Source: Asaia bogorensis
Lineage (GTDB): Bacteria > Pseudomonadota > Alphaproteobacteria > CACIAM-22H2
NCBI GenBank assembly: GCA_945901855.1
Contig: CAMDLT010000013.1
Location: 3,421 to 67,420 of the forward strand
Length of the DNA stretch: 64,000 nt
Reading direction: 5' to 3'
Both the position numbers and the translations under genes were made by a program. The notes below the pieces were generated by a model. That model searched no databases. It had not been told where the DNA came from and saw only the letters and a program-made list of their open reading frames with translations. Shown here piece after piece: positions 1,396 to 63,875 of this stretch. Numbering within the stretch: the stretch's first letter is position 1; every line of letters begins with the position of its first letter.

Positions 1396-3171
1396 ATGAG
1401 ATTCGAACTGGCCAAAGAGCCGGATTCGTCCGAGGGAAAACGTCGTTTGAAGAAGCTGGCGATCATCGACAACTCGGAATCGGTTGTCGATCAGGGGCGC
1501 GAAATTCCGGGCGCGCAGGCGCTGCGACGGGGTCTGTCGCTGCTCGATCTTGTCGCCGAACACCCTAGTCGGCTGCGCTTCAGCGAAATTGCGGACCGCG
1601 CAGGGCTCACGCGCGCAACGGTCCATCGCATGCTAGCCACGCTTGTCGAGGCGGGGTTGCTGCGCATCGACGAACGCGACCAGACCTACAGCCTCGGATT
1701 TCGCCTGTTCGAAATGGCGCATCGCGTGTGGGACCAGTTCGATCTGCGCTCGGCGGCGGAACCTGAACTCGAGCGCTTGCGCGATTTGACGGGCGAAACG
1801 ATCCGCCTTGGCATATTGGACGCGGGCGACATTCTCTATATCGACCAGCGCGAGGCGGCCCAGGCGGTGCGTCTTGGCAATGGTGTCGGCTCGCGCACCG
1901 CAAGCTTCGCCAGCGGTGCCGGCAAAGCCATTCTGGCGCACCTAGACCCGCTGCATCGCGAACAACTGCTCAACGCGCTTGAGCTGCGCAAATTTACGCC
2001 CAACACCATCGCCTTGCGCGCCGAACTCGACCGCGAACTCGATCTCACCAAAGCGCGCGGCTACGCCGTGTCGCTCGAAGAACAGCATCTTGGCATCAAT
2101 TCGGTTGCCGCCCCCATCCTCGACCAGCGTGCGCGCTCGATCGGCGCCATCGCGATCGTCGGCCCGTCCTACCGGCTGTCGGCCGATCGGCTGCATGCGC
2201 TGGGCCGCGAGGTGATGGAAGCGGCGCGGCGCATCTCTGGCAATGCAGGACAAGTCGCGATGTCGATCCAAATCAACCCGCGACCGCTCGGCGCCGATCG
2301 CGACGATCTGGTTTCGGCCATTCCGACCACCGCGTTTTTGGGCGAGGGACCGGTTTGGCTTGCCGCCGAAAACCGTTTGATGCTGGTCGATATTTTGGCC
2401 CCCGCGATCGTCGTGGCAGACCCCCAGACGGGTAGCTATGTCTCGCACAAGATGCCGGAGCTGGTCGGCGCGGTCGTGCCGCGTCGTCGCGGCGGCTATG
2501 TCGCGGCGATGCAAAACGGCTTTAAAGCGATCGACCTTGCGGGCGGGCGTGTCACGACGATCGCGGCCCCCGAGGTCGACAGGCCCGGCAATCGCTTCAA
2601 CGACGCCAAGTGCGACCGACGCGGGCGTTTTTGGGCAGGCACGCTCGCGATCGACACCACGCCGGGGCACGGCGCGCTCTATCGTCTCGACCCCGACGGG
2701 CGCTGCCTCAAAATGGACAGCGGGTTTCATATCTCGAACGGGCTTGGCTGGAGCCCCGACGACAAGGTTTTTTACTTCACGGACTCGGGCGCCAAACGCA
2801 TCTACGCCTACGATTTCGACATCGAAAACGGCGAACTCGCCGGGCGGCGCGCGTTCGTACAGGTGCCCGACGGCGTCGGCACGCCCGACGGCCTTGCGGT
2901 CGATGCCGAGGGTTTTGTGTGGTCCGCGCATTGGGATGGCTGGTGCGTCACGCGCTACGACCCCGACGGCAAAGTCGAGCGCGTGATCAACCTGCCTGTG
3001 CCGCGCCCGACCAGCTGCGCGTTCGGCGGCGCCGACCTTGGCACGCTTTTCATCACCAGCGCGCGCATCCGCCTGTCGGCCCAGCAATTGGCCGAAGCGC
3101 CGCTGTCGGGCAGCGTGTTCGCGCTCAATGCGGGCGTGCGCGGTCTTGCCGAAGTCCCGTTCGCGGGCTGA
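1396..3171 (+). CDS. IclR-family transcriptional regulator fused in frame to an SMP-30/gluconolactonase/LRE-like (SGL) domain
   Basis: Residues 1-288 have an IclR HTH ([43 protein letters not shown]) and an IclR ligand-binding region. Residues 289-591 have SGL beta-propeller motifs ([72 protein letters not shown]). No stop codon separates the two parts. An internal ATG at 2261 is preceded by AGGAC. Confidence 0.7.
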
Positions 3172-3184
3172 AGGAAAAACGCCA

Positions 3185-4261
3185 ATGGCCAGCGTCACGC
3201 TCGACAACGTGCAAAAAGATTTCAACGGCACAAAAGTTCTGCACGGCATCGACCTGCAGATCGACGACGGCGAGTTCGTCGTATTTGTCGGCCCCTCGGG
3301 CTGCGGCAAATCGACCTTGCTGCGGCTGATCTGCGGGCTCGACGATGCAAGTGCCGGGCGCATCGCGATCGACGGCGAAATCGTCAACGACGTGCCGCCC
3401 GCCAAGCGCGGCATCGCGATGGTGTTCCAGTCCTACGCGCTCTATCCGCATATGAGCGTGGCCGACAATATGGGCTACGCGTTGCGGCTGGCGGGCACGC
3501 CGCGCGCCGAAATCGACCGCCGCGTCGGGGCGGCCGCCGCCATTTTGCGGCTCGATGCGCTGCTCGACCGCAAGCCGCGCCAGCTTTCCGGCGGCCAGCG
3601 CCAGCGCGTCGCGATCGGTCGCGCTATCGTGCGCGAACCGCGCATCTTTCTGTTCGACGAACCGCTCTCCAATCTCGATGCGGCCTTGCGCGTCGACATG
3701 CGCGCGGAGATCGCCGGGCTCAAGCGGCGCTTGGGCACCACGATGGTCTATGTCACGCACGACCAGATCGAAGCGATGACACTCGCCGACAAAATCGTTG
3801 TCATGCATGCCGGACGCGTCGAACAGGTCGGCTCGCCGCTCGATCTCTATCGCCGCCCGGCCAACCGGTTCGTCGCGACGTTCATCGGATCGCCGCGCAT
3901 GAATCTCGTTGCGGCCCGCAGCGACGGCACCGGCCGCGTGCAGCTCGCGGACCAAACGCCGGTTCCTTTGCGCGCGGCGGCGTCGCTGACGGGCCTCGAA
4001 ATCGGCTTGCGCGCCGAACATATCCGCATTCGCGCCGACAGCAAGACGGCCGACTTCGTCGGCACCGTGCAAACGCTCGAACATCACGGGGCGGATATCT
4101 TTGCCCATGTCGTGCTGCCGGGGTCGGATGCCAAACTTGTCGTGCGCCAGTCCGGCGACAGCACGCTGGCTATCGGCACGTCAGTGCCTCTAGCCGTCGA
4201 TTGGAGCCAAACGCATCTGTTTGGAAGCGACGGCACGCGCCTCGATCTGGTGGCGGCATGA
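3185..4261 (+). CDS. sugar ABC transporter ATP-binding protein (MalK/UgpC type)
   Basis: Walker [10 protein letters not shown], signature [14 protein letters not shown], Walker [14 protein letters not shown], and a C-terminal MalK-like regulatory domain. Start chosen at [10 protein letters not shown], 14 nt after the upstream stop. Confidence 0.9.
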
Positions 4262-49681: not shown

Positions 49682-51020
49682 TTGCCGCGATCTGCCAGGA
49701 TTGGATTGCATTGTTGTGGTAGATCGAGCGCGTACCGCGCACCTCGCGCAGCTGGCCGTAAGAGGGCTGCACATAGCCCGTCTCGTCGATCGCGCGCGAT
49801 TGGAGCAAGCGATCGCTGCCGTCCCAAACGAAGGGCAGCGAGAAGCGCGTTAGGCATTTGGAGAGTACCGGCGTTTGCAGCGCCGCCGTTGTCCAATTGC
49901 GCCCGCCATCGATCGACACATCGACACGCCGGATCCGCCCGCGCCCCGACCACGCCAGACCGCTGATCGTGTAAAATCCTTTTTCGAGCAACGCTTGGCC
50001 GCCTGATGGCGACGTGATCACCGACTTGCATTCCTGGATCGACGTGTATTGGCGGTGCGTGCCATCGGACATCAAATCGATGTAATGAACGGCCTCGTCT
50101 TTGGCGCCGTAGGGCTGGTCGCCAAGTTCGATACGACGCAGCCACTTGACCCACGATACGCCCTGCACGCCGGGCACCACCAGACGCAGCGGATAGCCGT
50201 TTTCGGGCCGCAGCATCTCGCCGTTTTGCCCGTAAGCGACCAGCACTTCACCAGCCAAAACCGAATCGAGCGGGATCGTACGCGTCATTGACGAACCGTC
50301 CGCACCTTCGGCCAAGACGAATTTCCCACGCGCAAAATCGGCGCCGCAATCCTCGAGCAGCGTGCGCAGCGGGACGCCCGTGAACTCGCTGCACGACAGC
50401 ATGCCGTGCGTATACTGCACGGTGGGAACAGCAACGTTTCCCCATTCCATACCGGTATTAGCACCGCATTCGATGAAACAAATCCGGGATACCGACGGCA
50501 GGCGCATCAGATCGTCAAGCGTATAGACTTTTGGCCGTCGCACGAGGCCCGGCACGGCGCCAGTCACCATAAACCGATGCCGACGCGGATCGATATCGTG
50601 CCAACCTTGATGATGGCGCTCAAAATGCAAACCTGAGGGCGTAATGATGCCGAACAAGCCCTGCAACGGCGCAAACGAGACACTCGACCCGGCCGTCTGC
50701 GTCAGGCCCGGACTTTGTCGCCGACCAAGTCCGCGTTCATAGCGCGATGGCGAACCGTAGGGTGTGGTTGCGACGGGTTTGCCAAGCGACGTGCTCCACG
50801 GCGGCAAATTGAGTATCTGCGAGTCGCCCGTTGCTGCTACAGCGGGACCCGCAGCGACAGCACCAGTCGAAACGAGTGCCGTTTTCAAAAAGGCGCGACG
50901 CCCTTTGGATATCTCGGAAATTTCGAGCGGCGACAGAAAATTCTCGGGCGCCCGGCGTAGGGCGCCGCGCGTTTCCAGTCCCTCACCCGCCGGGTTTTCC
51001 CCTGACGATATCTTGCTCAT
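49650..51020 (-). CDS. soxC: sulfane dehydrogenase molybdopterin subunit SoxC (sulfite-oxidase family)
   Basis: Tat signal KGRRAFLKTALVSTGAVAAGPAVAA, 456 aa. Sulfite-oxidase family Mo-domain motifs (GLHFERHH, FIECGANTG with the Mo-ligand Cys) and a C-terminal dimerisation domain. Confidence 0.8.
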   Translation of the reverse strand: MSKISSGENPAGEGLETRGALRRAPENFLSPLEISEISKGRRAFLKTALVSTGAVAAGPAVAATGDSQILNLPPWSTSLGKPVATTPYGSPSRYERGLGRRQSPGLTQTAGSSVSFAPLQGLFGIITPSGLHFERHHQGWHDIDPRRHRFMVTGAVPGLVRRPKVYTLDDLMRLPSVSRICFIECGANTGMEWGNVAVPTVQYTHGMLSCSEFTGVPLRTLLEDCGADFARGKFVLAEGADGSSMTRTIPLDSVLAGEVLVAYGQNGEMLRPENGYPLRLVVPGVQGVSWVKWLRRIELGDQPYGAKDEAVHYIDLMSDGTHRQYTSIQECKSVITSPSGGQALLEKGFYTISGLAWSGRGRIRRVDVSIDGGRNWTTAALQTPVLSKCLTRFSLPFVWDGSDRLLQSRAIDETGYVQPSYGQLREVRGTRSIYHNNAIQSWQIAANGEVGNVQIF

Positions 51021-51066
51021 TCGTTTCCTTCCCGAATGAACATTAGCAGCATCTAATACGAAAATG

Positions 51067-51097
51067 CAAGAAATCTAACGAGGTCGTTTAGATTTCT
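51067..51097. promoter_or_regulatory. perfect 11-bp-arm palindrome AAGAAATCTAA-N9-TTAGATTTCTT upstream of soxC
   Basis: Seen directly in the AT-rich 215-bp gap between soxC (start 51020) and the upstream dehydrogenase gene (end 51236). Could be an operator for a sox regulator, or a weak U-tailed terminator for the upstream minus-strand gene. Confidence 0.4.
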
Positions 51098-51235
51098 TTC
51101 CGAGAGTCCGGATCGCAGTTTGCCGCCAGTGTGGCGGGCGTGTCCCCGCAGTCGAGTGCCCGCTCAACCGACAGAGCTTGCCGTTATGCCGCCAGGCGCG
51201 ACGCGTAGGGTCGAAGCGTTTTTTGTCAAGCGCGC

Positions 51236-52204
51236 CTAGACAACGATATCGTCGGCCGGCAGCGGCTCGCCGCGCGAGACGGCCATAATATTGGCAAACA
51301 TGCGGTTAACGGTTGGCGCGTAATTGTCGGCGGCGATTGCCGCCAGATGCGGCGTAAGAATAAGATTGTCGATGCCGACTAGATTGCTGTTGGCGGGCAG
51401 CGGTTCAACTGCAAACACATCCATCGCTGCCGCATGGATTGTGCCGTCGCGCAAAGCACGCACCAGATCACCCTCGACCACCACACCGCCGCGCGCCACA
51501 TTGACGAGGATGGCGCTCCGCTTCATCGTCGCGAGTGCTTGGAAATCGATCAAGTTCTTGGTCTCGGGAGTCATTGGACAATGCAGCGACACAACGTCGC
51601 TGCGGGCGAGAAGTTCGGACAAGGGCGCATAGCGCGCACCTAACGCCCGCTCTTCATCGGCCGAAAGTCGGTTCGGCTTGTGGTAGAGAATCGTGCAGCC
51701 GAACCCCTGCAGTATACGCGCAACTGCTTTGCCGATGGCGCCAAATCCGATCAGGCCAACCGTTTTGCCCGACAGCATAAAAGTTTCGCGCGTTTGCGCG
51801 TCCACGCCGCGCCAAGCACCGCCACGCAAATCGGCATGCCCATTGGCGATATGGCGCAGCGTCGCCAACATGAGCCCGAGCGTGAATTCCGCGACTGGAA
51901 TCGCGTTGCTGCCTGTCGTACGCGCCACCTTGATGCCGCAGGCGCGTGCGGCCTCCAAGTCGAAGTTATCGACGCCAACTCCCCATTTGTGCAGCAGCTT
52001 CAGCTTGCGCGCCGCGCGCATAACGTCGCCGCCAACGCCCACTTGGCCCGAAATCGCGTAGTCGGCGTCGGCGATCAGCTCCTTCAAATGCAGATCGCCG
52101 CGCGCAGTGGCGCAACTGAGAGAAAACCCCGGCGGCACATAGTGCCGCAGCTTTGCTAGGTTTTTTTCGGTAAGCGGATCGACGACGACGATCGATTGGG
52201 CCAT
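51236..52204 (-). CDS. D-isomer-specific 2-hydroxyacid dehydrogenase family protein (NAD-binding)
   Basis: 322 aa from MAQSIVVVD. GxGxxG NAD motif GLIGFGAIGKAVA and the catalytic Arg/Glu/His triad region (VARGGVV...EPL...LTPH). Confidence 0.85.
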   Translation of the reverse strand: MAQSIVVVDPLTEKNLAKLRHYVPPGFSLSCATARGDLHLKELIADADYAISGQVGVGGDVMRAARKLKLLHKWGVGVDNFDLEAARACGIKVARTTGSNAIPVAEFTLGLMLATLRHIANGHADLRGGAWRGVDAQTRETFMLSGKTVGLIGFGAIGKAVARILQGFGCTILYHKPNRLSADEERALGARYAPLSELLARSDVVSLHCPMTPETKNLIDFQALATMKRSAILVNVARGGVVVEGDLVRALRDGTIHAAAMDVFAVEPLPANSNLVGIDNLILTPHLAAIAADNYAPTVNRMFANIMAVSRGEPLPADDIVV

Positions 52205-53958: not shown

Positions 53959-55581
53959 TTAGGCGTGCAGGCCCGGCGCCTCATGGCCCGAGCGAGCCAC
54001 ATACTCCGTGTAGCCGCCGTCGTAGCGATGGATGCCCTCGGGCGTAAGTTCCAGCACGCGGTTCGACAGCGCGGCCAAGAAGCGCCGGTCGTGCGACACG
54101 AACAGCATCGTTCCTTCGTATTGCGAAAGCGCCGCAATCAGCATTTCCTTGGTCGCAATATCGAGATGGTTTGTCGGCTCGTCGAGGACGAGAAAGTTCG
54201 GCGGATCGTAGAGCATCTGGGCCATCACGAGTCGTGCTTTCTCCCCGCCCGACAGCACGCGGCATTTTTTTTCGATCTCGTCGCCCGAGAATCCGAAGCA
54301 GCCCGCAAGCGTACGTAACGACCCCTGCCCGGCGCGCGGGAACGCGTACTCGAGCGATTGGTAAACCGTCCGCTCGCCGTCGAGCAATTCCATCGCATGC
54401 TGCGCGAAATAGGCCATCTTGACGCTGCCGCCGAGCGTGACCGTCCCTTCGTCGGGCGCCGTCGTGCCGGTGACGAGCTTCAGCAGCGTCGATTTGCCGG
54501 CCCCGTTGACGCCCATGATGCACACACGCTCCTTGCGGCGCACCATCAAATCGAGATTTTCGTAGATCGTGCGGCTGCCGTAACGTTTCGAGACGCTGCG
54601 CAGATTGACGACGTCGTCGCCCGAACGCGGGGCAGCCATAAACTCGAACGAAACGGTCTGGCGGCGTTTTGGCGGCTCGACCCGATCGATTTTGTCGAGC
54701 TTTTTCACGCGGCTTTGCACCTGCGCCGCGTGCGAGGCGCGAGCCTTGAAACGCTCGATGAATTTGATCTCCTTGGCCAGCATCGCCTGCTGTCGGTCGA
54801 ACTGCGCCTGCTGCTGCTTTTCGTTCTGGGCGCGCTGCATCTCGTAGAACTCGTAATCGCCCGAATATGTCGACAACGTTCCGCCATCGATCTCGACGAT
54901 CTTGGTCACGATGCGGTTCATAAACTCGCGGTCGTGGGAAGTCATCATCAATGCGCCGTCGTAGTTTTTTAAAAATGCTTCGAGCCAGATTAGGCTTTCG
55001 AGATCGAGATGGTTGCTCGGTTCGTCGAGCAGCATCACGTCCGGACGCATCAGCAAGATGCGCGCGAGGGCGACCCGCATTTTCCAGCCGCCCGACAATG
55101 CGCCTACGTCGCCGTCCATCATCTCCTGGCTGAAACTGAGGCCGGCCAGCGTCTCGCGCGCACGGCTTTCGAGCGCGTAGCCGCCAAGCTCCTCGAATCG
55201 AGCCTGTACCTCGCCAAACCGTTCGATCGTTTCGTTCAGACTGTCCGCGTGTTCGGGATCGCCCATTTTGGCTTCGAGCGCGTGCAATTCGGCGGCTACG
55301 TCGCTGACGACGCCAGCCCCAGCAGTGGCTTCGGCCACGGCGCTTCGCCCCGACATTTCGCCGACATCCTGGCCGAAATAGCCGATGCTGACGCCCCTAT
55401 CGATTACGATTTGGCCTTCGTCGGGCTGTTCCTGCCCGCAAACCATTCGAAAGATCGTCGACTTGCCGGCCCCATTGGGGCCTACCAGTCCGATCTTTTC
55501 GCCCCTGAGAAGAGTAGCAGAGGCTTCGATAAAGAGGATCTGTTGGCCGTTTTGCTTGCTGATCTTGTCGAGGCGAATCAT
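53959..55581 (-). CDS. ABC-F family ATPase (tandem ABC domains, no TM domain; EttA/Uup-like translation factor)
   Basis: Two Walker A motifs (GPNGAGKST, GVNGAGKST) and two signature motifs (LSGGWKMRVALA, LSGGEKARLVMA), with a charged inter-domain linker. Confidence 0.85.
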   Translation of the reverse strand: MIRLDKISKQNGQQILFIEASATLLRGEKIGLVGPNGAGKSTIFRMVCGQEQPDEGQIVIDRGVSIGYFGQDVGEMSGRSAVAEATAGAGVVSDVAAELHALEAKMGDPEHADSLNETIERFGEVQARFEELGGYALESRARETLAGLSFSQEMMDGDVGALSGGWKMRVALARILLMRPDVMLLDEPSNHLDLESLIWLEAFLKNYDGALMMTSHDREFMNRIVTKIVEIDGGTLSTYSGDYEFYEMQRAQNEKQQQAQFDRQQAMLAKEIKFIERFKARASHAAQVQSRVKKLDKIDRVEPPKRRQTVSFEFMAAPRSGDDVVNLRSVSKRYGSRTIYENLDLMVRRKERVCIMGVNGAGKSTLLKLVTGTTAPDEGTVTLGGSVKMAYFAQHAMELLDGERTVYQSLEYAFPRAGQGSLRTLAGCFGFSGDEIEKKCRVLSGGEKARLVMAQMLYDPPNFLVLDEPTNHLDIATKEMLIAALSQYEGTMLFVSHDRRFLAALSNRVLELTPEGIHRYDGGYTEYVARSGHEAPGLHA

Positions 55582-55650
55582 GCGAACCCTATGTTTTGGG
55601 AACGCGGAAACTACCCGGTCCGGCCGACCGATGCGAGAGACTTTCGACGA

Positions 55651-56397
55651 TTACCCCACGGCATGGCGCGGAAGCGGAATGGCTTCGATGGCCCTGTCGC
55701 CGAAGCGCAAATAGCCCTCCTCAAGCGGCAATTCGCGCGCGACGATGAGCCCGTCGCTTTGGACGCCGTGCGTCGGGTCAAGCATCCGTCGACCTTTTGT
55801 GCCGGGCGGATCGAATGTCCATTCCTGAAATCCCAGAATGTAGAAATTCAGCATCACTGCGGGTTTGTCGTCGGCACAAAACCAGTGCGCATTGCGCGAA
55901 ACCTCGGTCGTCTCGAACCTGTCACCGATGCCGAACCAGCGGTCAGTGCGCGTGCGCAGCAGCAGCGTGTCGGGCGCGACGCGCGCAACGCGATCCCATT
56001 CGCGTGCATAAACGCGCCCCTCGAGCACGACCTGGGTTGAAATCAAATTGTGATGGCAATGCGGCGGATGCACCTCGCCCGGATCGAGATACAGAAGCTG
56101 CATCGTCCAGGATTTAGCGGGCGTCGTCATTTGGTTGAGCACTTGGTCCGTCCGCTCGTCGAGCGCCTTGCGGATCCAGGGTTTGAGTTCGGCGACCAAA
56201 TCGATCGACCGGTGCAACGCGCGAATCCGATCGATATAGTCATCGGGTGTAATCGCATGGCAGCCCAACGCGTCGATCGAGGCTTCGGCTTGCGTCCATA
56301 GACGCTCGCGATAGGCATCGACATCGGGCAGCACGGCCCCTGCGCGCGTGTTTATCTTCACGATCTTGCCGGACGCCGTTTTGATCTCTTTGGCCAT
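55651..56397 (-). CDS. cupin-fold protein (metal-binding HxH...E motif)
   Basis: MAKEIKTASG..., cupin motif GEVHPPHCHHNLISTQVVLEG. A GAGGGAG RBS lies upstream of ATG 56397; the ATG at 56412 lies inside that RBS. Confidence 0.55.
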   Translation of the reverse strand: MAKEIKTASGKIVKINTRAGAVLPDVDAYRERLWTQAEASIDALGCHAITPDDYIDRIRALHRSIDLVAELKPWIRKALDERTDQVLNQMTTPAKSWTMQLLYLDPGEVHPPHCHHNLISTQVVLEGRVYAREWDRVARVAPDTLLLRTRTDRWFGIGDRFETTEVSRNAHWFCADDKPAVMLNFYILGFQEWTFDPPGTKGRRMLDPTHGVQSDGLIVARELPLEEGYLRFGDRAIEAIPLPRHAVG

Positions 56398-56408
56398 CGC
56401 CAACTCCC

Positions 56409-57620
56409 TCAATCGACCATCGTATCGACCAGCATCCGCTGAAAATGATGGACGTTCTTTTCCCAGACCGGCGAGAAAACGACTTTGTCGGCGACTGGCG
56501 AACGGCGTGCGATCTGCTGCTGTTCCCAGATTTTCATGTCCTGGCTGCGGATGCCGCCGTAGTCGCGCATAATTCCCGTTTCGCCGAGCCAGCGCGCCAA
56601 GGTCTTTTTGCGCTGTTCGGCGAACTCAGGAGCTGTCGCCGCATCGCCGACGAAAAAATAACCCATCTTCGAGACCGTTCGGTCCGCCGCGATCGGATCG
56701 GCAATCACTGACGCAAGATGGTCGGACTGCAGCGTCAGCGTCATATTCGGAAACACGACGCTCGTACAGCGCACGCGCTTGCGACCTTCAGCGTATGGAA
56801 TTAAAGGCAATTGGCCTGCCGCCGGATAGAAATCTTGGTCGCCCCGGCGCTTCAATGTGACGACCGTGCCAAGCGGAATGGGCTCCGCAAGAGGTTGGCC
56901 CGTTGCAAGATCGAGATCGTCCGACATCTTTGTGAAGACGTTTTTATGCACCCATATATGATGGTACGTCTCCCAATTGTCGTTCTGCATTTTCCAATTT
57001 GCATTCCACGCCCAATCTTCGCGGTGCCCGATGCGGGTCGCTCCCAAATCGGCACCGTCGATCAATTGCTCGAGAGGGCGAATATGCTCGGCGAACTGGG
57101 CCGCATTGGAATCGAGATTGATAAAAATCCAATGGTGCCAAATCGCCGTCCGAACCGGGATCAAGCCCAACGCGGCAAGATCCAAACTGCCCGACCGATT
57201 GCCCTCCTTCGTGCCGTCGAAATAGGGCGTGGATTTCAAACGGCCGTCCAAATCGTAGGCCCATGCATGATAAGGACAGGCAAATTGCTTCAGATTCGAG
57301 CATGGTTCCGTCACCATCATCGCCGCGCGATGGCGACAGACGTTGTGGAAAACTCAGATCGACCCGGCTGCATCGCGAACCAGGATTAATGGAATTCCTG
57401 CGGCCATGAGGGGGATTGCGTCCCCTACCTTCGGCACGTCGCTGGCAAAGGCCAAGCACATCCATGTGCGCGCAAACAGTTTTTGCTGTTCCAGTCGGAA
57501 AAAATCGCCGTCCGTGTAGGCTAATCCTGGAAGGCCGCAAGATTGCTCGATCGGTTTGCGGATTGAGTCGATAGCGTTTTGACCGAGGATGTTTTCGATG
57601 GTGTGCAGCATCTTCGACAT
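56409..57620 (-). pseudogene. Rieske [2Fe-2S] non-heme-iron oxygenase alpha subunit, interrupted by an in-frame TGA (codon 57352-57354)
   Basis: ORFs 57354..57620 and 56409..57320 are in the same frame. The reverse complement across the gap reads GSI-TGA-VFHNVCRHRAAMMVTEPCSNLKQFACPYHAWAY. This is the intact Rieske CxH...CxxH motif with a stop where Arg (CGA) is expected. The C-terminal part has the mononuclear-iron catalytic domain (WETYHHIWVH). Confidence 0.6.
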
Positions 57621-57768
57621 AACGCCTCCTTTCGGCTCTCAGAAGAATGTATGCCAAATCTGTACCATTCGAAAGACAACGGCGGTGATTACGGTGGCCC
57701 GTATTTTGCTCTCACTATGAAACCGGAGACGCCCACACCTGCCTCCGGCTTTCGTCCGAGGAAAATGC

Positions 57769-58623
57769 ATGAAGGCGCGCTGGCACTGGGTTCTGCTTCC
57801 GTCGCTAACTTTGTCGCTGGCATTGCTGTTGGCGTCACAGATCGCTTTTTTACGCGGCAGTTTTTTCCAAGATCTTCGGCTCGGTCGTTTGGGCACGACT
57901 TTTACGATCGAAAACTACGCGCGCTTTTTTGCCGACGACATCTATTGGAACTCGTTGCTTCTCACGGTCCAACTCTCCGCGACAGTGGCGCTGCTCACGC
58001 TGGCATGCGGCTTTCCGATTGCCTACATCCTGGCTCGGATGCGCTCGCGCTGGTCATTGATGTTGCTGGCAGCACTGATTGCAGCTTCATTCGTTACGAT
58101 CGTGATCAAGGTGCTAGGGTTGATCATTATCTTCTCGAGCAGCGGCACACTTAACCGGCTCCTTGTCGGCTCGGGATTGCTCGACAAACCGCTGACGATC
58201 ATGGGGCAATCCTCGGGCGTTGTCATCGGCCTCATGCATTTCACCATGGGGTTTGCGGTACTATTGCTCTATTCGGTTGTGCGCACGATTCCACGCTCGC
58301 TGGAGGAGGCAGCCGAAATCCATGGCGCGCCGCGCTGGAGAGTTTTTCTTCGCGTCGTTCTGCCGCTTGCGACGCCCGGGATCGTCGTCACCGCGTTGAT
58401 TGTTTTCAATCTCTGCATGGGCGCCTTCACCTCGGCGGCCCTGATTGGCGGCGGCAAGGTCTTTACCCTACCGGTATTGATCCAGCAGACGGTAATTTTA
58501 CAAACACGCTACGGGATGGGTGCCACGATCTCCGCTGTTCTGATGGTGGTTACACTTGCAATCAATTTGATTTCGGTTGTGATCATGGCGCGCTTCGGTT
58601 CGCATCGCGGAACGACGGCATGA
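57769..58623 (+). CDS. ABC transporter permease (PotB / spermidine-putrescine type)
   Basis: 284 aa, 6 TM segments, EAA loop EEAAEIHGAPRWRVFLRVVLP. Confidence 0.8.
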   Translation: MKARWHWVLLPSLTLSLALLLASQIAFLRGSFFQDLRLGRLGTTFTIENYARFFADDIYWNSLLLTVQLSATVALLTLACGFPIAYILARMRSRWSLMLLAALIAASFVTIVIKVLGLIIIFSSSGTLNRLLVGSGLLDKPLTIMGQSSGVVIGLMHFTMGFAVLLLYSVVRTIPRSLEEAAEIHGAPRWRVFLRVVLPLATPGIVVTALIVFNLCMGAFTSAALIGGGKVFTLPVLIQQTVILQTRYGMGATISAVLMVVTLAINLISVVIMARFGSHRGTTA

Positions 58624-59459
58624 ACCGCTATCGGGCCATCGGCAGTTTACGCAAAACCGTTGCCGCGTTCTGGGTATTTGCCGTATTCGTATTTTTGTTC
58701 GCACCGCTCGTCGTCGTCGTCGGGGCCTCCTTCGACGGCGGCGAACGCACCTTCCTCAGCTTTCCGCCGCGCGAACTTTCGCTTCACTGGTATGGCCGAA
58801 TCGATCCAGATCTTTTTCAAGCGCTGGGTCTCAGCATACTGCTCGGCACGATCACCGCGATCCTTGCATGCTTGATCGGCGTGCCTGCCGCCTTGGGACT
58901 GGTAAGGGCACAGTTTCCAGGCAAGGCACTGGTTGCGGCTGCGTTTCGCGCACCTTTGCAGATCCCGGCCGTCGTGATCGGGGTCTCGTTTCTCAAACTC
59001 TTTTATTTGATCGGCGATGTGACCGGCATCTATATCGTCGGCACGTTACCAGGTCTCGTGGTCGCGCACACGTTCCTTGCAACTCCCTATTTGATCGGAT
59101 CCGTATCGGCCGTTCTCCTACGCTTCAATGCGCGGCTCGAGGAGGCGGCGTTGAGTCTCGGAGCGAGCCGCTGGCGTACATTGAGGCGTGTGACGCTGCC
59201 GGTGATCATGCCCGGCATCTACACCGGCGCAATGTACGCGTTCTTGGTTTCGTTCGGTGACGTGCCGGTAGCATTGTTTCTGGGCGGATCTGGTATGCAG
59301 CCTTTTGCCGCCAAGATATTCCATTTGATGGAGTTCGATTTCGATCCGTCCTTGCTAGCGATCTCGACTTTCATCATCGTCGGCTCGGTCGCCGCCATTT
59401 ATCTGCTGCAACGTGCAGTCGGCCTCGAAGAGCTAGGCCGCTCCGGCGGTGCCAATTGA
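58620..59459 (+). CDS. ABC transporter permease (PotC type)
   Basis: 279 aa, EAA loop EEAALSLGASRWRTLRRVTLP. ATGA overlap with the upstream permease. Confidence 0.8.
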   Translation: MNRYRAIGSLRKTVAAFWVFAVFVFLFAPLVVVVGASFDGGERTFLSFPPRELSLHWYGRIDPDLFQALGLSILLGTITAILACLIGVPAALGLVRAQFPGKALVAAAFRAPLQIPAVVIGVSFLKLFYLIGDVTGIYIVGTLPGLVVAHTFLATPYLIGSVSAVLLRFNARLEEAALSLGASRWRTLRRVTLPVIMPGIYTGAMYAFLVSFGDVPVALFLGGSGMQPFAAKIFHLMEFDFDPSLLAISTFIIVGSVAAIYLLQRAVGLEELGRSGGAN

Positions 59460-59490
59460 CCTCAACCTTCGCAAAATCAGGAGAATGCCC

Positions 59491-60570
59491 ATGACGACGA
59501 TCGCAAGACGACGCCTCCTCGCGGGCCTAGCCGTATCGGGCGCTGCGTTGGCAGCACCCGCCTTGCGGGCCCAGACGCCTCGTTTTGCGGGCGTTACTCT
59601 GCGCGTCGCGACCTTTGGCGGCGGCTGGGACCGCGCGGTCCACAAATATGCAGGCATCAAGCTCGAAGAACTTGGCGCCAAAGTCGAATACGTGACAGCA
59701 CCGCCGCGCGACAATCTTGCCAAGCTAATCGCGGCCAAAGGACGTCCGGCTCCATTTGACGTCGTCGAGATGGCGGACCTGACCTGGGTCGATACGTACG
59801 ATGCCGGATTTCTGCAAAAAATCGATCTGGCGAACATACCCAACCGCCGCGACCTGCTGCCAAGCCAATCCGACGAATGGAAGGTCGCAAGCTGGGCCAC
59901 GCAAGAGGGCATCGTCTTCAATGCCGATCGCTTCGCCGCCGCCGGCATTCCAAGGCCCGAACGCTACAAGGACCTGCTCGACCCGCGGCTTGCAGGCAAG
60001 CTTGCGCTGATCGATATCTCCCAGGCCGGTGCTGCCCAACTTCTCGTCGGCGCTTCGACCGACGAGGGTGGCAGCATGCGCGACATTGAAGCAGGTTTGC
60101 GGTTCGTTCGCGCAGCGAATCCGTTCCAGTTTTGGAAAGTCGGCGCCCAGGCTGTAACGCTGTTCAATTCGGGCGACATATGGGCCTCGACGATGCACGC
60201 CGGTTTTGCCGTGCAGATGCGCCGTGCCGGGTTGCCCGTGAGCTTTGCCCACCCGCGTGTGGGTCCGCGCCAGCGCGGCCTGCTCAAAGAAGGCTGGCTT
60301 GGCGTTGTGCGCGGCACACCGCAACCGCGCGCCGCCGAATTCTTCATCAACGAATACGTGTCCGAAGCCACGCAACACGGGCTTGCGACCGAACGCGGAG
60401 TCGTTCCCGTGAACGGCAAAGCGCGCGCGCGCCTGGCAAGCGATCCGATCTTAAACGAGATGTTCTTGCTGAGCGATGCTGACGTCGCGAACATGGTCCA
60501 AGTCGACTTCAACGTTTTCAACATCGACGACGCAACGCAACGCTGGACTCGTGCCGTAAGCCAACGCTAG
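59491..60570 (+). CDS. ABC transporter substrate-binding protein (PotD/PotF-like) with Tat signal
   Basis: MTTIARRRLLAGLAVSGAALAAPALRA, AGGAGA RBS 7 nt upstream, about 360 aa. Confidence 0.75.
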   Translation: MTTIARRRLLAGLAVSGAALAAPALRAQTPRFAGVTLRVATFGGGWDRAVHKYAGIKLEELGAKVEYVTAPPRDNLAKLIAAKGRPAPFDVVEMADLTWVDTYDAGFLQKIDLANIPNRRDLLPSQSDEWKVASWATQEGIVFNADRFAAAGIPRPERYKDLLDPRLAGKLALIDISQAGAAQLLVGASTDEGGSMRDIEAGLRFVRAANPFQFWKVGAQAVTLFNSGDIWASTMHAGFAVQMRRAGLPVSFAHPRVGPRQRGLLKEGWLGVVRGTPQPRAAEFFINEYVSEATQHGLATERGVVPVNGKARARLASDPILNEMFLLSDADVANMVQVDFNVFNIDDATQRWTRAVSQR

Positions 60571-60577
60571 CGCCGAG

Positions 60578-61561
60578 ATGCAGATCGCGATCGTCGGAGC
60601 GGGCGCTATCGGCGGTGCGCTCGCGCATGCGCTTACGAAAAGCGGTGCCGACCCTCTTCTGGTCGCGCGCGGCGCAGTTGCGGCTGCGATCCGTCGCGAC
60701 GGGCTGCGTGTGGACCGCATGGGCACTGCCGAAACCTCTCGGCCACGCGTCGTCGTGGATACAAACACGGCTGGCGTACAGGATGTCGTGATCGGCACGC
60801 TGAAAGCCCAAGATTGGCTAGCAGCCGCCGATCTCTTTCGACCGCTGATCGGCCCCCGCACGGTGATATTGCCAGCGCTCAACGGCGTTCCGTGGTGGTA
60901 CTTTCATGGCGAGGGCGGACGCCACAACGGTATGCACTTGGTGAGCCTCGACCCTGATCGGATTCTAGCCAATCTATTTCCAGTGAAGCAGTTGATCGGA
61001 ACAGTCGTATATATGGCTGTTTCTCGGGCAGATCCCGGTGTCTTATCGTGGCCAACCGGCAATCGCCTCGTGCTGGGACGCGCGCAAGAAGATGGCGGAG
61101 ATCCAGCGCCTATCGCCAAGCTTTTGCGGGACGCAGGAATGGCGATAGACGAAGCCGAAGACATTCGCCACGCCGTCTGGAGCAAGCTGCTCGGCAATGC
61201 GAGCCTTAATCCCGTGTCGGCGCTTTCCTTGCAGACGGTCGAAGGAATGCTCGACGACCCCGACCTACTCGCCGTATGTGCCGATGCTGTTCGCGAGACA
61301 ATCGCCCTGGCAGCGGGCGTCGGCAGACCCATCGAGACGAGCGTGGAAGCGCGCCTGGATTTGGCCCGACAGCTCGGCCCATTTCGCACGTCAATGCTAC
61401 AAGATTTCGAAGCGGGTCGCGCGCTTGAAATTGCAGCCATGCTCGATGCGCCCATAGAAATCGGACGCCTCGTCGGCGTGCCCACACCGGTTCTGGAAAC
61501 GTTGGCGCGTCTTACTCGTGCAGCCGTCTTGCGCCGCAACCGTTCCCGCTCGCCCGCATGA
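60578..61561 (+). CDS. 2-dehydropantoate 2-reductase (PanE/ApbA) family oxidoreductase
   Basis: MQIAIVGAGAIGGALA Rossmann N-terminus, ApbA N- and C-terminal domain pattern (LPALNGV, KLLGNASLNP). Confidence 0.8.
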   Translation: MQIAIVGAGAIGGALAHALTKSGADPLLVARGAVAAAIRRDGLRVDRMGTAETSRPRVVVDTNTAGVQDVVIGTLKAQDWLAAADLFRPLIGPRTVILPALNGVPWWYFHGEGGRHNGMHLVSLDPDRILANLFPVKQLIGTVVYMAVSRADPGVLSWPTGNRLVLGRAQEDGGDPAPIAKLLRDAGMAIDEAEDIRHAVWSKLLGNASLNPVSALSLQTVEGMLDDPDLLAVCADAVRETIALAAGVGRPIETSVEARLDLARQLGPFRTSMLQDFEAGRALEIAAMLDAPIEIGRLVGVPTPVLETLARLTRAAVLRRNRSRSPA

Positions 61562-61630: not shown

Positions 61631-62788
61631 GTGGTGGTTGCAACGGAGAAAGGGCGCGTGGTTTCGAAACTGGCATCGCCTTACGACGGACTGGCTTGGG
61701 CGACGGCGCCAATTCGTGCGTTGCCGCCCTATCGCGGTCCAGTAACGCTAGCGGATTTCCCGGATCCGACACGGTGCCCGCGTCTCATCCATCTAAACGA
61801 GTCACCGCTGCCGCCCTCCCCCCATGTGGCCGAAGCGATCCGCGCGGCGACTCACGATCTCAACCGCTATCCCGATATTGCTGGTCGCGCGTTGGCCAAC
61901 GCAGTCGCAGAGCGTGTCCAGATGCCGCGCGAAAATATCGTTTTCGGCTGCGGTAGCGACGAGTTGCTGCATTTCTCAACGACGATAACGCTGGCAGCCG
62001 GTGACGAAGCAGTGGTACCGGCCCCCGCGTTTCCGCGCTACGCGTTATCGACAAGACTGGCGGGCGCCATTCCCAGGCGTGCCAAGCTCGACGCCGAAGG
62101 AGCTTGCGATCCTGACGAGATCTTGGCTGCGATAGGACCACGCACCCGTCTGGTGTTCGTGTGCACGCCCAATCCGCCGTCCGGCGGCATGATGACTGGC
62201 GAAGCCCTGCGCGCCGTGGCGCATGGCGTGCCCGAAGATGTGCTTTTGCTGTTGGACGAAGCCTATTACGAATTCGGACACCATCGCGGGGGGCCGGATA
62301 CACTGGCGATCATGCGCGAGCGAAAAGGCCCGTGGCTCGCAACGCGCACTTTCTCCAAGGCGTACGCATTGGCCGCGTTGCGCGTTGGCTACGCAATCTG
62401 CGGCGATGCGTCGGTCGCAGAAGCGTTGCGCCGCGCCAAACTGCAGTTCAACGTCCCGACCTTGAGCCAAGCCGCCGCATTGGCAGCATTTCAAGACCAA
62501 CCCTACCTCGACAAATTGCTCGACGCCGTTTCGGCCGAGCGCGCAAATCTTGCAACCGGCCTCGCGCGACTTGGACTGCGCGTCTGGCCGTCGGCAGCGA
62601 ATTTCGTTTCGTGCGTGCTGCCAGGCCCGGCAACCCTGGCGATGGCGGCGCTTGAGAAGGACGGGATCCTGGTACGCGACTGGCGAGACCCCGAGCATCT
62701 CAACGAACTTCGCATCGGCGTTGGTATGCCGGACGACACGCACGCAGTGCTAGCCGCGTTGGAGCGCTATTTGGGAGATGCCGCGTGA
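61631..62788 (+). CDS. class I/II PLP-dependent aminotransferase (histidinol-phosphate aminotransferase-like)
   Basis: HisC-like motifs: NESP, FGCGSDE, TPNPPSGG, and the PLP-lysine region RTFSKAYALAALRVGY. GTG start; exact start uncertain. Confidence 0.8.
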   Translation: MVVATEKGRVVSKLASPYDGLAWATAPIRALPPYRGPVTLADFPDPTRCPRLIHLNESPLPPSPHVAEAIRAATHDLNRYPDIAGRALANAVAERVQMPRENIVFGCGSDELLHFSTTITLAAGDEAVVPAPAFPRYALSTRLAGAIPRRAKLDAEGACDPDEILAAIGPRTRLVFVCTPNPPSGGMMTGEALRAVAHGVPEDVLLLLDEAYYEFGHHRGGPDTLAIMRERKGPWLATRTFSKAYALAALRVGYAICGDASVAEALRRAKLQFNVPTLSQAAALAAFQDQPYLDKLLDAVSAERANLATGLARLGLRVWPSAANFVSCVLPGPATLAMAALEKDGILVRDWRDPEHLNELRIGVGMPDDTHAVLAALERYLGDAA

Positions 62789-63303
62789 GTCCGGCGCCGA
62801 TGCGCGGTAAGGCGATCATCGCGGCGCTGAAGCGCGCGGGTGTGGAATTCGTCGTGGCGTTGCCCGACATCGTAACCAGCGATGGGCTGCTATGGCCACT
62901 GTCGCGAGATCCAGACATAAAATTGTTGCGCGTGTGCAAAGAAGACGAAGGGATTGGAATTTGCGCGGGCCTGGCATTTGCCGACCGACGCGCGGTTTTG
63001 CTGATCCAGCAGACCGGCTTGCTCGACTCGATCAACGCGCTGCGCGCAGTGGGCGTGGAATATAACCAGCCGATCGTTCTCCTCGTTGGCATGCAAGGCA
63101 AGGAGCCGGGCATCGATCCTGCGGTATCCCAAAAAATATCCGTACGCATCGTCCCCCCAATCCTGGATGCGATGGGCGTTGAATATCGTTGGCTCGAGCA
63201 GCAAGCAGACGAGATGCAGGTGGAGCCTGCCATCGAAAGAGCCTATGCCATGTCGCATCCGATCTGCCTGCTGATCGGCTCCAGCCCGAGCACAGAACCA
63301 TGA
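62785..63303 (+). CDS. comD: sulfopyruvate / phosphonopyruvate decarboxylase alpha subunit (TPP enzyme N-terminal PYR domain)
   Basis: 172 aa, resembles the pyrimidine-binding domain of split TPP decarboxylases (EDEGIGICAGLAF). ATGA overlap with the beta-subunit gene. Confidence 0.7.
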   Translation: MSPAPMRGKAIIAALKRAGVEFVVALPDIVTSDGLLWPLSRDPDIKLLRVCKEDEGIGICAGLAFADRRAVLLIQQTGLLDSINALRAVGVEYNQPIVLLVGMQGKEPGIDPAVSQKISVRIVPPILDAMGVEYRWLEQQADEMQVEPAIERAYAMSHPICLLIGSSPSTEP

Positions 63304-63875
63304 TGAAACGCGACGAATGCCTGCGTGTGCTGGCGGGCCATGTGCGCGACGAAGCGGTCGTTGCGACCTACCAAGCGGCATTCGACTGGATGGCGGTAGC
63401 GCCACGCGATCTCAACTATGTTTCAATCGGCGCTATGGGTATCGCGTCGTCGCACGGGCTTGGTTTGGCATTGGGGCAGCCTGACCGACGCGTAATCGTG
63501 CTCGATGGCGACGGCAGTCTGCTGATGAACTTGGGTTCCCTTGCCACGATCGCATCAACGGCCCCGCGCAACCTGGTGCATTTGGTTTGCGTCAACGGTG
63601 TCTACGAGGCCAATGGCAGCCACCCCCTGCCGGGCGCCGCCACGCTCGATTTTACCGCAATCGCGAAAGGTGCAGGGTTGGCAGACTCAGCAACGTTAGC
63701 AACGCTGGACGAATTCAAGGCGGATATTCCCCATATCCTGTCCGGTAACGGTCCGATTTTTCGCGCTTTGATCGTAACTGCAGGTGCTCCAAGCCCCCAG
63801 AACTACGCCTACATCCATGGCGCCGAAACTCGCAGTCGTTTCAAGGCTGCGTTTACGCGGCCTTCAACCCATTAG
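63300..63875 (+). CDS. comE: sulfopyruvate / phosphonopyruvate decarboxylase beta subunit (TPP-binding PP domain)
   Basis: 191 aa, TPP diphosphate-binding motif GDGSLLMNLGSL...N. Confidence 0.7.
   Translation: MMKRDECLRVLAGHVRDEAVVATYQAAFDWMAVAPRDLNYVSIGAMGIASSHGLGLALGQPDRRVIVLDGDGSLLMNLGSLATIASTAPRNLVHLVCVNGVYEANGSHPLPGAATLDFTAIAKGAGLADSATLATLDEFKADIPHILSGNGPIFRALIVTAGAPSPQNYAYIHGAETRSRFKAAFTRPSTH

Follow-up and report, generated by a model that had tools for sequence, protein, structure and literature searches.

Does a gene for a Rieske non-heme iron oxygenase that is interrupted by an in-frame TGA still yield an enzyme, and if it does not, how did the stop arise? In the window, by which we mean the whole 64,000-nucleotide stretch of DNA from a freshwater alphaproteobacterium analyzed here, minus-strand positions 57620..56409 form one 404-codon frame including the terminal stop, with 403 sense positions and, on translation, one internal stop. 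The preliminary description had read the two same-frame ORFs at this place as pieces of one alpha subunit and had offered three origins for the stop: a fresh nonsense mutation, a sequencing error or a recoded codon. The parts of the gene are these.

56409..57620, minus strand: disrupted Rieske non-heme iron oxygenase alpha subunit gene, 403 codons, with its own stop TGA at 56411..56409
57357..57620, minus strand: N-terminal fragment of 88 codons (57620..57354 with its stop in the ORF list)
57354..57356, minus strand: premature TGA in frame at codon 89, an Arg codon (CGA) altered by C to T at 57356
57321..57353, minus strand: 11 orphaned codons, VFHNVCRHRAA, with the Rieske ligands Cys95 and His97, between the TGA and the first possible start
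56409..57320, minus strand: C-terminal ORF of 303 codons, keeping Cys115, His118 and the catalytic domain with E217, H220, H225 and D361

Base 57356 reads T on the minus strand; on the plus strand it is A, changed from G. The TGA at codon 89 lies in the context GGGUCGAUCUGAGUUUUCC, and the read-through translation there runs ...VRDAAGSI*VFHNVCRHRAAMM... The first ATG is preceded by a strong Shine-Dalgarno sequence, AGGAGG at 57630..57625, and the 88-codon fragment is the only piece so equipped; nothing resembling a Shine-Dalgarno sequence lies ahead of the ATG at 57320. From the TGA to that ATG (codon 101, M101) no ATG, GTG or TTG occurs, so the codons for Cys95 and His97 fall in no ORF. Gene callers report the 88-aa fragment as a protein, and it has no Pfam match. 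The 303-aa ORF, catalogued as P0024, matches Ring_hydroxyl_A alone.

Reading through the stop gives a protein in which Pfam finds Rieske (PF00355) at residues 52-135 (E 3e-16, 59.3 bits against a gathering cutoff of 20.3) and Ring_hydroxyl_A (PF00848) at residues 199-401 (E 3e-19, 70.3 bits against a cutoff of 24.9). The same protein aligns end to end with intact proteins of 403-407 aa at up to 99% identity and E 1e-277 (1818 hits). Given this full-length alignment with intact orthologs and the Pfam matches, the match across the junction is no coincidence. Across it runs the Rieske motif C95-x-H97-x17-C115-x-x-H118, and the earlier proposal that joining the two fragments restores the motif is thereby confirmed. 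E217, H220 and D361 are invariant in 48 homologs, and H225 is found in at least 90% of the 48 and is invariant in a 20-sequence alignment. All four of these mononuclear iron-site residues are present in the window sequence, with D361 probably the carboxylate ligand of the site. In its two-domain architecture, its CXH-X17-CXXH and E217-x2-H220-x4-H225 motifs, its D361 and its fold (Foldseek E about 1e-25), the gene is like the Rieske non-heme iron oxygenase alpha subunits and differs from them in being interrupted. As C95 and H97 are outside every ORF, no window product carries C-X-H-X(15-17)-C-X-X-H in one polypeptide. By descent, as judged from these alignments, the gene belongs to the Rieske alpha family, though its predicted products lack the complete motif.

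Comparison with orthologs, which the preliminary description had called for at codon 89, indicates that the stop is derived. The closest relative, L002 (a Logan assembly of SRR12871554), shows 8 differences from the window gene in 1212 nt, and its codon 89 is CGA. CGA is also found in L010 (SRR27945399), L007, L008 and L009, so that all five close relatives (94-99% nt identity) agree. In each of the 25 orthologous loci examined the codon is CGA, CGC, CGG, AGG or AAG, coding for Arg or Lys, and among 48 intact homologs the residue at position 89 is Arg in 27, Lys in 20 and Gln in one. These results support the earlier claim that a single CGA-to-TGA change truncates the enzyme after 88 aa. When window-specific changes were polarized against L002, L010, L007 and L003, those in the Rieske gene were R89*, V160I, P175Q and one synonymous change at T329. 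Pro175 is kept in 43 of the 48 homologs. Besides the stop, the window lineage thus has two nonsynonymous changes and one synonymous change, tiny counts for judging relaxed selection. Between the window and L003 the pN/pS of the Rieske gene is 0.09, a value that indicates strong purifying selection over the long term. We also considered drift toward AT as a sign of long-standing decay and rejected it, as it extends beyond the Rieske gene: the whole locus has lower GC than L003 and L005, with GC3 of 0.64-0.77 in all its genes in the window lineage.

The gene is thus very probably a young pseudogene, formed by a real and recent nonsense mutation in the alpha-subunit gene of a dispensable catabolic module. 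A C-to-T transition would have turned CGA (Arg89) into the stop TGA, and translation from the strong native ribosome-binding site would then end after 88 residues. The next possible start, ATG 57320, is downstream of the Cys95 and His97 codons, so a product begun there would not bind [2Fe-2S] and the enzyme would be lost. The mutation would be a recent first hit, with the catalytic motifs of the Rieske gene and 12 neighboring genes still whole. That it is recent is suggested by the lack of a second disabling lesion in the gene, by its intact motifs and by the wholeness of the importer, the ApbA-like gene and the other neighbors. Among the three origins first offered for the stop, a fresh nonsense mutation fits best, since the stop is derived and the rest of the gene is intact. 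The change is likely a real allele, fixed or in the majority in the organism, and selection on the module has likely been relaxed. Like other bacterial pseudogenes with a single nonsense mutation, this one has one premature stop, intact conspecific alleles and relatives with multiple lesions across the operon. Nothing about it is unusual in that company, though early and late stages in the decay of one module are visible together. It is an ordinary pseudogene, and annotation should merge its 88-aa and 303-aa ORFs into a single pseudogene in place of two hypothetical proteins.

It is unlikely, though not negligibly so, that the TGA is instead an artefact of sequencing or assembly, or a minority variant in a mixed population, and that the organism's gene is intact with CGA. 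The window derives from a metagenome assembly, as its MEGAHIT-style contig name (k141_1968847) indicates, CGA alleles at 99% identity or more are present in other samples, and the remainder of the Rieske gene is flawless, all consistent with an error at one base. The 223-kb contig L001 (ENA ERZ27280227, k141_1968847) matches the window without a single difference (100%) across 12.9 kb and represents the same assembly or genome, not an independent one. However, the same split gene, with its 88-aa and 303-aa products, is found on three contigs of different sizes from NCBI, ENA and Logan, showing that more than one assembler gave TGA, although the three may share one sequencing run and so possibly the same underlying reads. 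Local consensus quality also appears high. Compared with L010, no indel or anomaly is seen over 10.9 kb; the alignments have zero gaps over 6,095 nt against L002 and over 10,861 nt against L010. Across 13 genes and about 15 kb compared with L002, L010 and L007, the window has no further premature stop, frameshift or indel, so the assembly is clean locally. The private P175Q at a conserved Pro, and the independent pseudogenization of the same gene in a sister lineage (see below), which makes the loss biologically plausible, likewise argue against an artefact. A codon-position GC heuristic applied across the window for other in-frame stops could not tell split genes apart from neighbors in the same frame.

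We consider it very unlikely that the UGA is a leaky stop, read through at a low level, for instance by a near-cognate tRNA-Trp, or, as a milder version, that it is the first step of a recurrent and possibly adaptive loss of a five-gene module for uptake and oxidation in a freshwater species of Rhodospirillales. Were the stop leaky, the allele would be down-tuned rather than dead and some full-length enzyme would still be made. Were the milder version true, genes that act together could be identified from their joint decay.

Slimmer still is the chance that the UGA is decoded, as selenocysteine, under a reassigned code or by efficient programmed read-through, to give a full-length functional enzyme. 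The rest of the reading frame is perfectly preserved, and a hairpin of -23.3 kcal/mol lies 16 nt 3' of the UGA. This hairpin, however, is not significant (z -1.44, with 14 of 200 shuffles folding equally well), and the CGA alleles of L002 and L010 have the very same sequence there. A search of Rfam with positions 55500-58500 gave no match at E <= 1 and no SECIS-like signal, and the window holds no tRNA-Sec gene, nor indeed any tRNA gene. TGA is the ordinary stop of seven of the 13 neighboring genes, this one included, whose lengths match those of their orthologs. The homologous position is Arg, Lys or Gln in the 48 homologs and never Cys or Sec. The recoded stop that had been listed as an option is effectively excluded.

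A natural split, in which the 88-aa and 303-aa polypeptides reconstitute the enzyme, is hardly credible: public annotations do call both pieces as genes, but Cys95 and His97 are in neither ORF, the second ORF has no ribosome-binding site, and the naturally split orthologs that the preliminary description had said would speak against a mutation do not occur, as no other homolog among the 1818 hits is divided at this point. Some short homolog hits, on contigs of 1.4-1.6 kb, are probably truncated by the contig ends. As the stretch with Cys95 and His97 is translated by no ORF, neither fragment, nor both together, is predicted to be able to bind a [2Fe-2S] cluster.

If the Rieske gene is a young pseudogene, its surroundings bear on whether the loss is confined to one gene. 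The gene order on the minus strand is the Rieske gene and then a gene for a 248-aa protein. On the divergent plus strand it is permease, permease, binding protein, ApbA-like reductase, hisC-like aminotransferase and a two-subunit TPP decarboxylase-like enzyme.

55651..56397, minus strand: 248-aa cupin-like gene, 11 nt after the Rieske stop
57769..58623, plus strand: permease 1 (BPD_transp_1)
58620..59459, plus strand: permease 2 (BPD_transp_1)
59491..60570, plus strand: binding protein (SBP_bac_8/1/6)
60578..61561, plus strand: ApbA/PanE-like gene of the 2-dehydropantoate-reductase family, intact (NF005089, 299.6 bits against a cutoff of 223)

Both permeases and the binding protein are full length in the window, without stops or indels relative to L002 and L010. 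No beta-subunit or reductase gene adjoins the Rieske gene, and the locus has no reductase gene of the CntB/GbcB type.

Through the cluster mates P0122, P0124 and P0126 we found a sister lineage at about 96% nt identity (L007, L008, L009 and 3300059473). It was seen in JGI samples 3300003969, 3300042289, 3300035666 and 3300059473 and in a Logan run. Its Rieske gene carries Q262* (CAA to TAA) and a 1-nt deletion, together with substitutions of invariant residues: H92D throughout, and R200H and Y219N in P0124. The damage extends to further genes of the locus.

4108-9215 of L007 (JGI 3300003969): decayed module with independent lesions in multiple genes

In L007, premature stops interrupt permease 2 at codon 57 and the binding protein at codon 67; deletions have further removed 2 nt from the binding protein and 38 nt from the ApbA-like gene. 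Intact in the same contig, at pN/pS of 0.03-0.25, are the 248-aa gene, ABC-F, GGT, the aminotransferase and the TPP subunits. The 3300059473 contig shares the splits of the Rieske, permease-2 and ApbA genes, and its binding protein is still full length while these other genes are split, suggesting the decay is progressive and stepwise. The sister lineage shares no lesion with the window, and L007 has CGA at codon 89; the inactivations in the two lineages are therefore independent.

Since the sister lineage independently inactivated the same gene set, the module appears dispensable in this species complex. The co-decay suggests that the Rieske gene may be grouped with the importer that lacks an ATPase and with the ApbA-like reductase as one functional unit, as these decay while purifying selection continues to act on the cupin-like gene, the aminotransferase and the TPP enzyme. 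On the same grounds, namely its 38-nt deletion in the decayed lineage, the ApbA-like reductase is probably part of the module of the Rieske gene and the importer. The co-decay also informs on an uncharacterized Rieske oxygenase subfamily with more than 1800 homologs, and its value is mainly comparative.

The preliminary description had regarded the locus as decaying, in part because the importer beside the Rieske gene has no ATPase. Its account of the operon is correct: there are two permeases and a binding protein and no ATPase gene. The expendability of the locus gained support from the independent, advanced decay in the sister lineage, but the missing ATPase fails as a sign of decay. Intact Rieske genes are accompanied by the same ATPase-less order in L002 and L010 (about 98% nt identity), in L003 and L004 (both 92% aa identity), in L005 and L006 (both 83% aa identity) and in the Tagaea loci, and the layout is found in at least 15 loci with intact genes. 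Given this identical order around intact Rieske genes in relatives, the lack of an ATPase reflects the ancestral layout and is no symptom of decay.

The closest named genomes for the Rieske protein are MAGs of Tagaea sp. (Rhodospirillales), at 84-85% aa identity. These MAGs (L011-L022) conserve an orphan PotA-like ATPase (ABC_tran and TOBE_2) that lies 6-10 kb downstream of the Rieske gene without adjacent permeases, a candidate for a shared ATPase serving the ATPase-less importer. In the window we looked for an ATPase for the importer and rejected the sole tblastn match, 3038..4261, as it belongs to a separate MalK-type sugar transporter; no counterpart is nearby.

The region 58450-59500, covering the 3' end of permease 1 and all of permease 2, diverges from L010 and L002 by about 8% nt against a background of about 1%. 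Permease 2 has 68-70 mismatches in 840 nt to these two, nearly all of them synonymous (pN/pS 0.03-0.04). The region looks like a recombination tract or an imported allele in an otherwise near-identical locus.

The 248-aa gene is probably co-transcribed with the Rieske gene and may suffer polarity from the premature stop. Its protein had no match in Pfam, NCBIfam or PDB sequences. It has about 65 homologs in 5.8 billion proteins, some of them annotated as cupin, and two of the homologs carry PF07847 (PCO_ADO, thiol dioxygenase). The gene always adjoins this Rieske gene, yet in a contig with an inactivated Rieske gene, such as L007 (pN/pS 0.11), it remains intact and constrained by purifying selection.

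What the intact enzyme acts on was also considered, as the preliminary description had placed the locus in quaternary-amine or aromatic-amine demethylation. An AF2 model of P0001, an intact ortholog at 99%, has the Rieske oxygenase alpha fold (pLDDT 88.6, pTM 0.90). Foldseek against the PDB gave 172 matches to this model at E <= 0.001, and the best 50 of the 172 are all Rieske oxygenase alpha subunits. CntA (6y9d) ranks first with E 5.9e-26, a TM score of 0.79 on the target and 18% identity, next to biphenyl dioxygenase at 1.2e-25 and stachydrine demethylase at about 2e-24. With phmmer against the PDB, biphenyl dioxygenase (4.9e-30, N-terminal half only) ranks above CntA (7e-22) and Stc2 (8e-18). 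The best NCBIfam match is GbcA (NF058607), at 122.7 bits against a cutoff of 670 and over residues 20-230 only, below equivalog level. Assigning a substrate through these NCBIfam, PDB sequence and fold searches thus gave a non-specific result, and the demethylation label is not established, given the GbcA score and a fold search that does not separate CntA from biphenyl dioxygenase.

Like the Group V enzymes (CntA 6Y8J/6Y9D, Stc2 3VCA, GbcA), the window gene is alpha-only, with no beta subunit nearby. A Cys-X-X-Cys pair adjacent to the mononuclear iron site is found in some members of the group, CntA and Stc2 (PMC10952381). In contrast, the iron-ligand region of the window gene, N-W-E217-T-Y-H220-H-I-W-V-H225, has no cysteine, and the pair is absent. 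The bridging Glu of CntA is Glu205 (PMC10952381), and E217 probably sits at its position. The ring-hydroxylating biphenyl and toluene dioxygenases equal CntA by fold and beat it by sequence. Automatic annotation at JGI calls the relatives choline monooxygenase, and L003 and L005 carry sarcosine-oxidase-like genes at a distance of 8-10 kb. For an alpha-only Rieske oxygenase, "quaternary-amine demethylase" is a reasonable guess.

On the plus strand at 61658-63875, the hisC-like aminotransferase gene is followed by the genes for the two-subunit TPP enzyme. This enzyme resembles sulfopyruvate or phosphonopyruvate decarboxylase, with every score below the equivalog cutoffs. Taken with the PCO_ADO-like cupin, it points tentatively away from betaine catabolism and toward metabolism of the organosulfonate or phosphonate type.

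The intergenic region 51020-51236 is a mismatch hotspot relative to L010, with 13 mismatches in 200 nt. At the corresponding place L003 (16295-20733) has an extra RraA-like gene and a complete ABC transporter (binding protein, ATPase and two permeases). This extra segment lies between a 2-hydroxyacid dehydrogenase and a Mo-oxidoreductase and is missing from the window lineage. On the plus strand at 1396-3171, a 591-aa ORF has HTH_IclR and IclR_C (residues 42-281) followed by SMP-30/gluconolactonase (315-557). It is either a fusion of a regulator with an enzyme or two genes joined through a lost stop.
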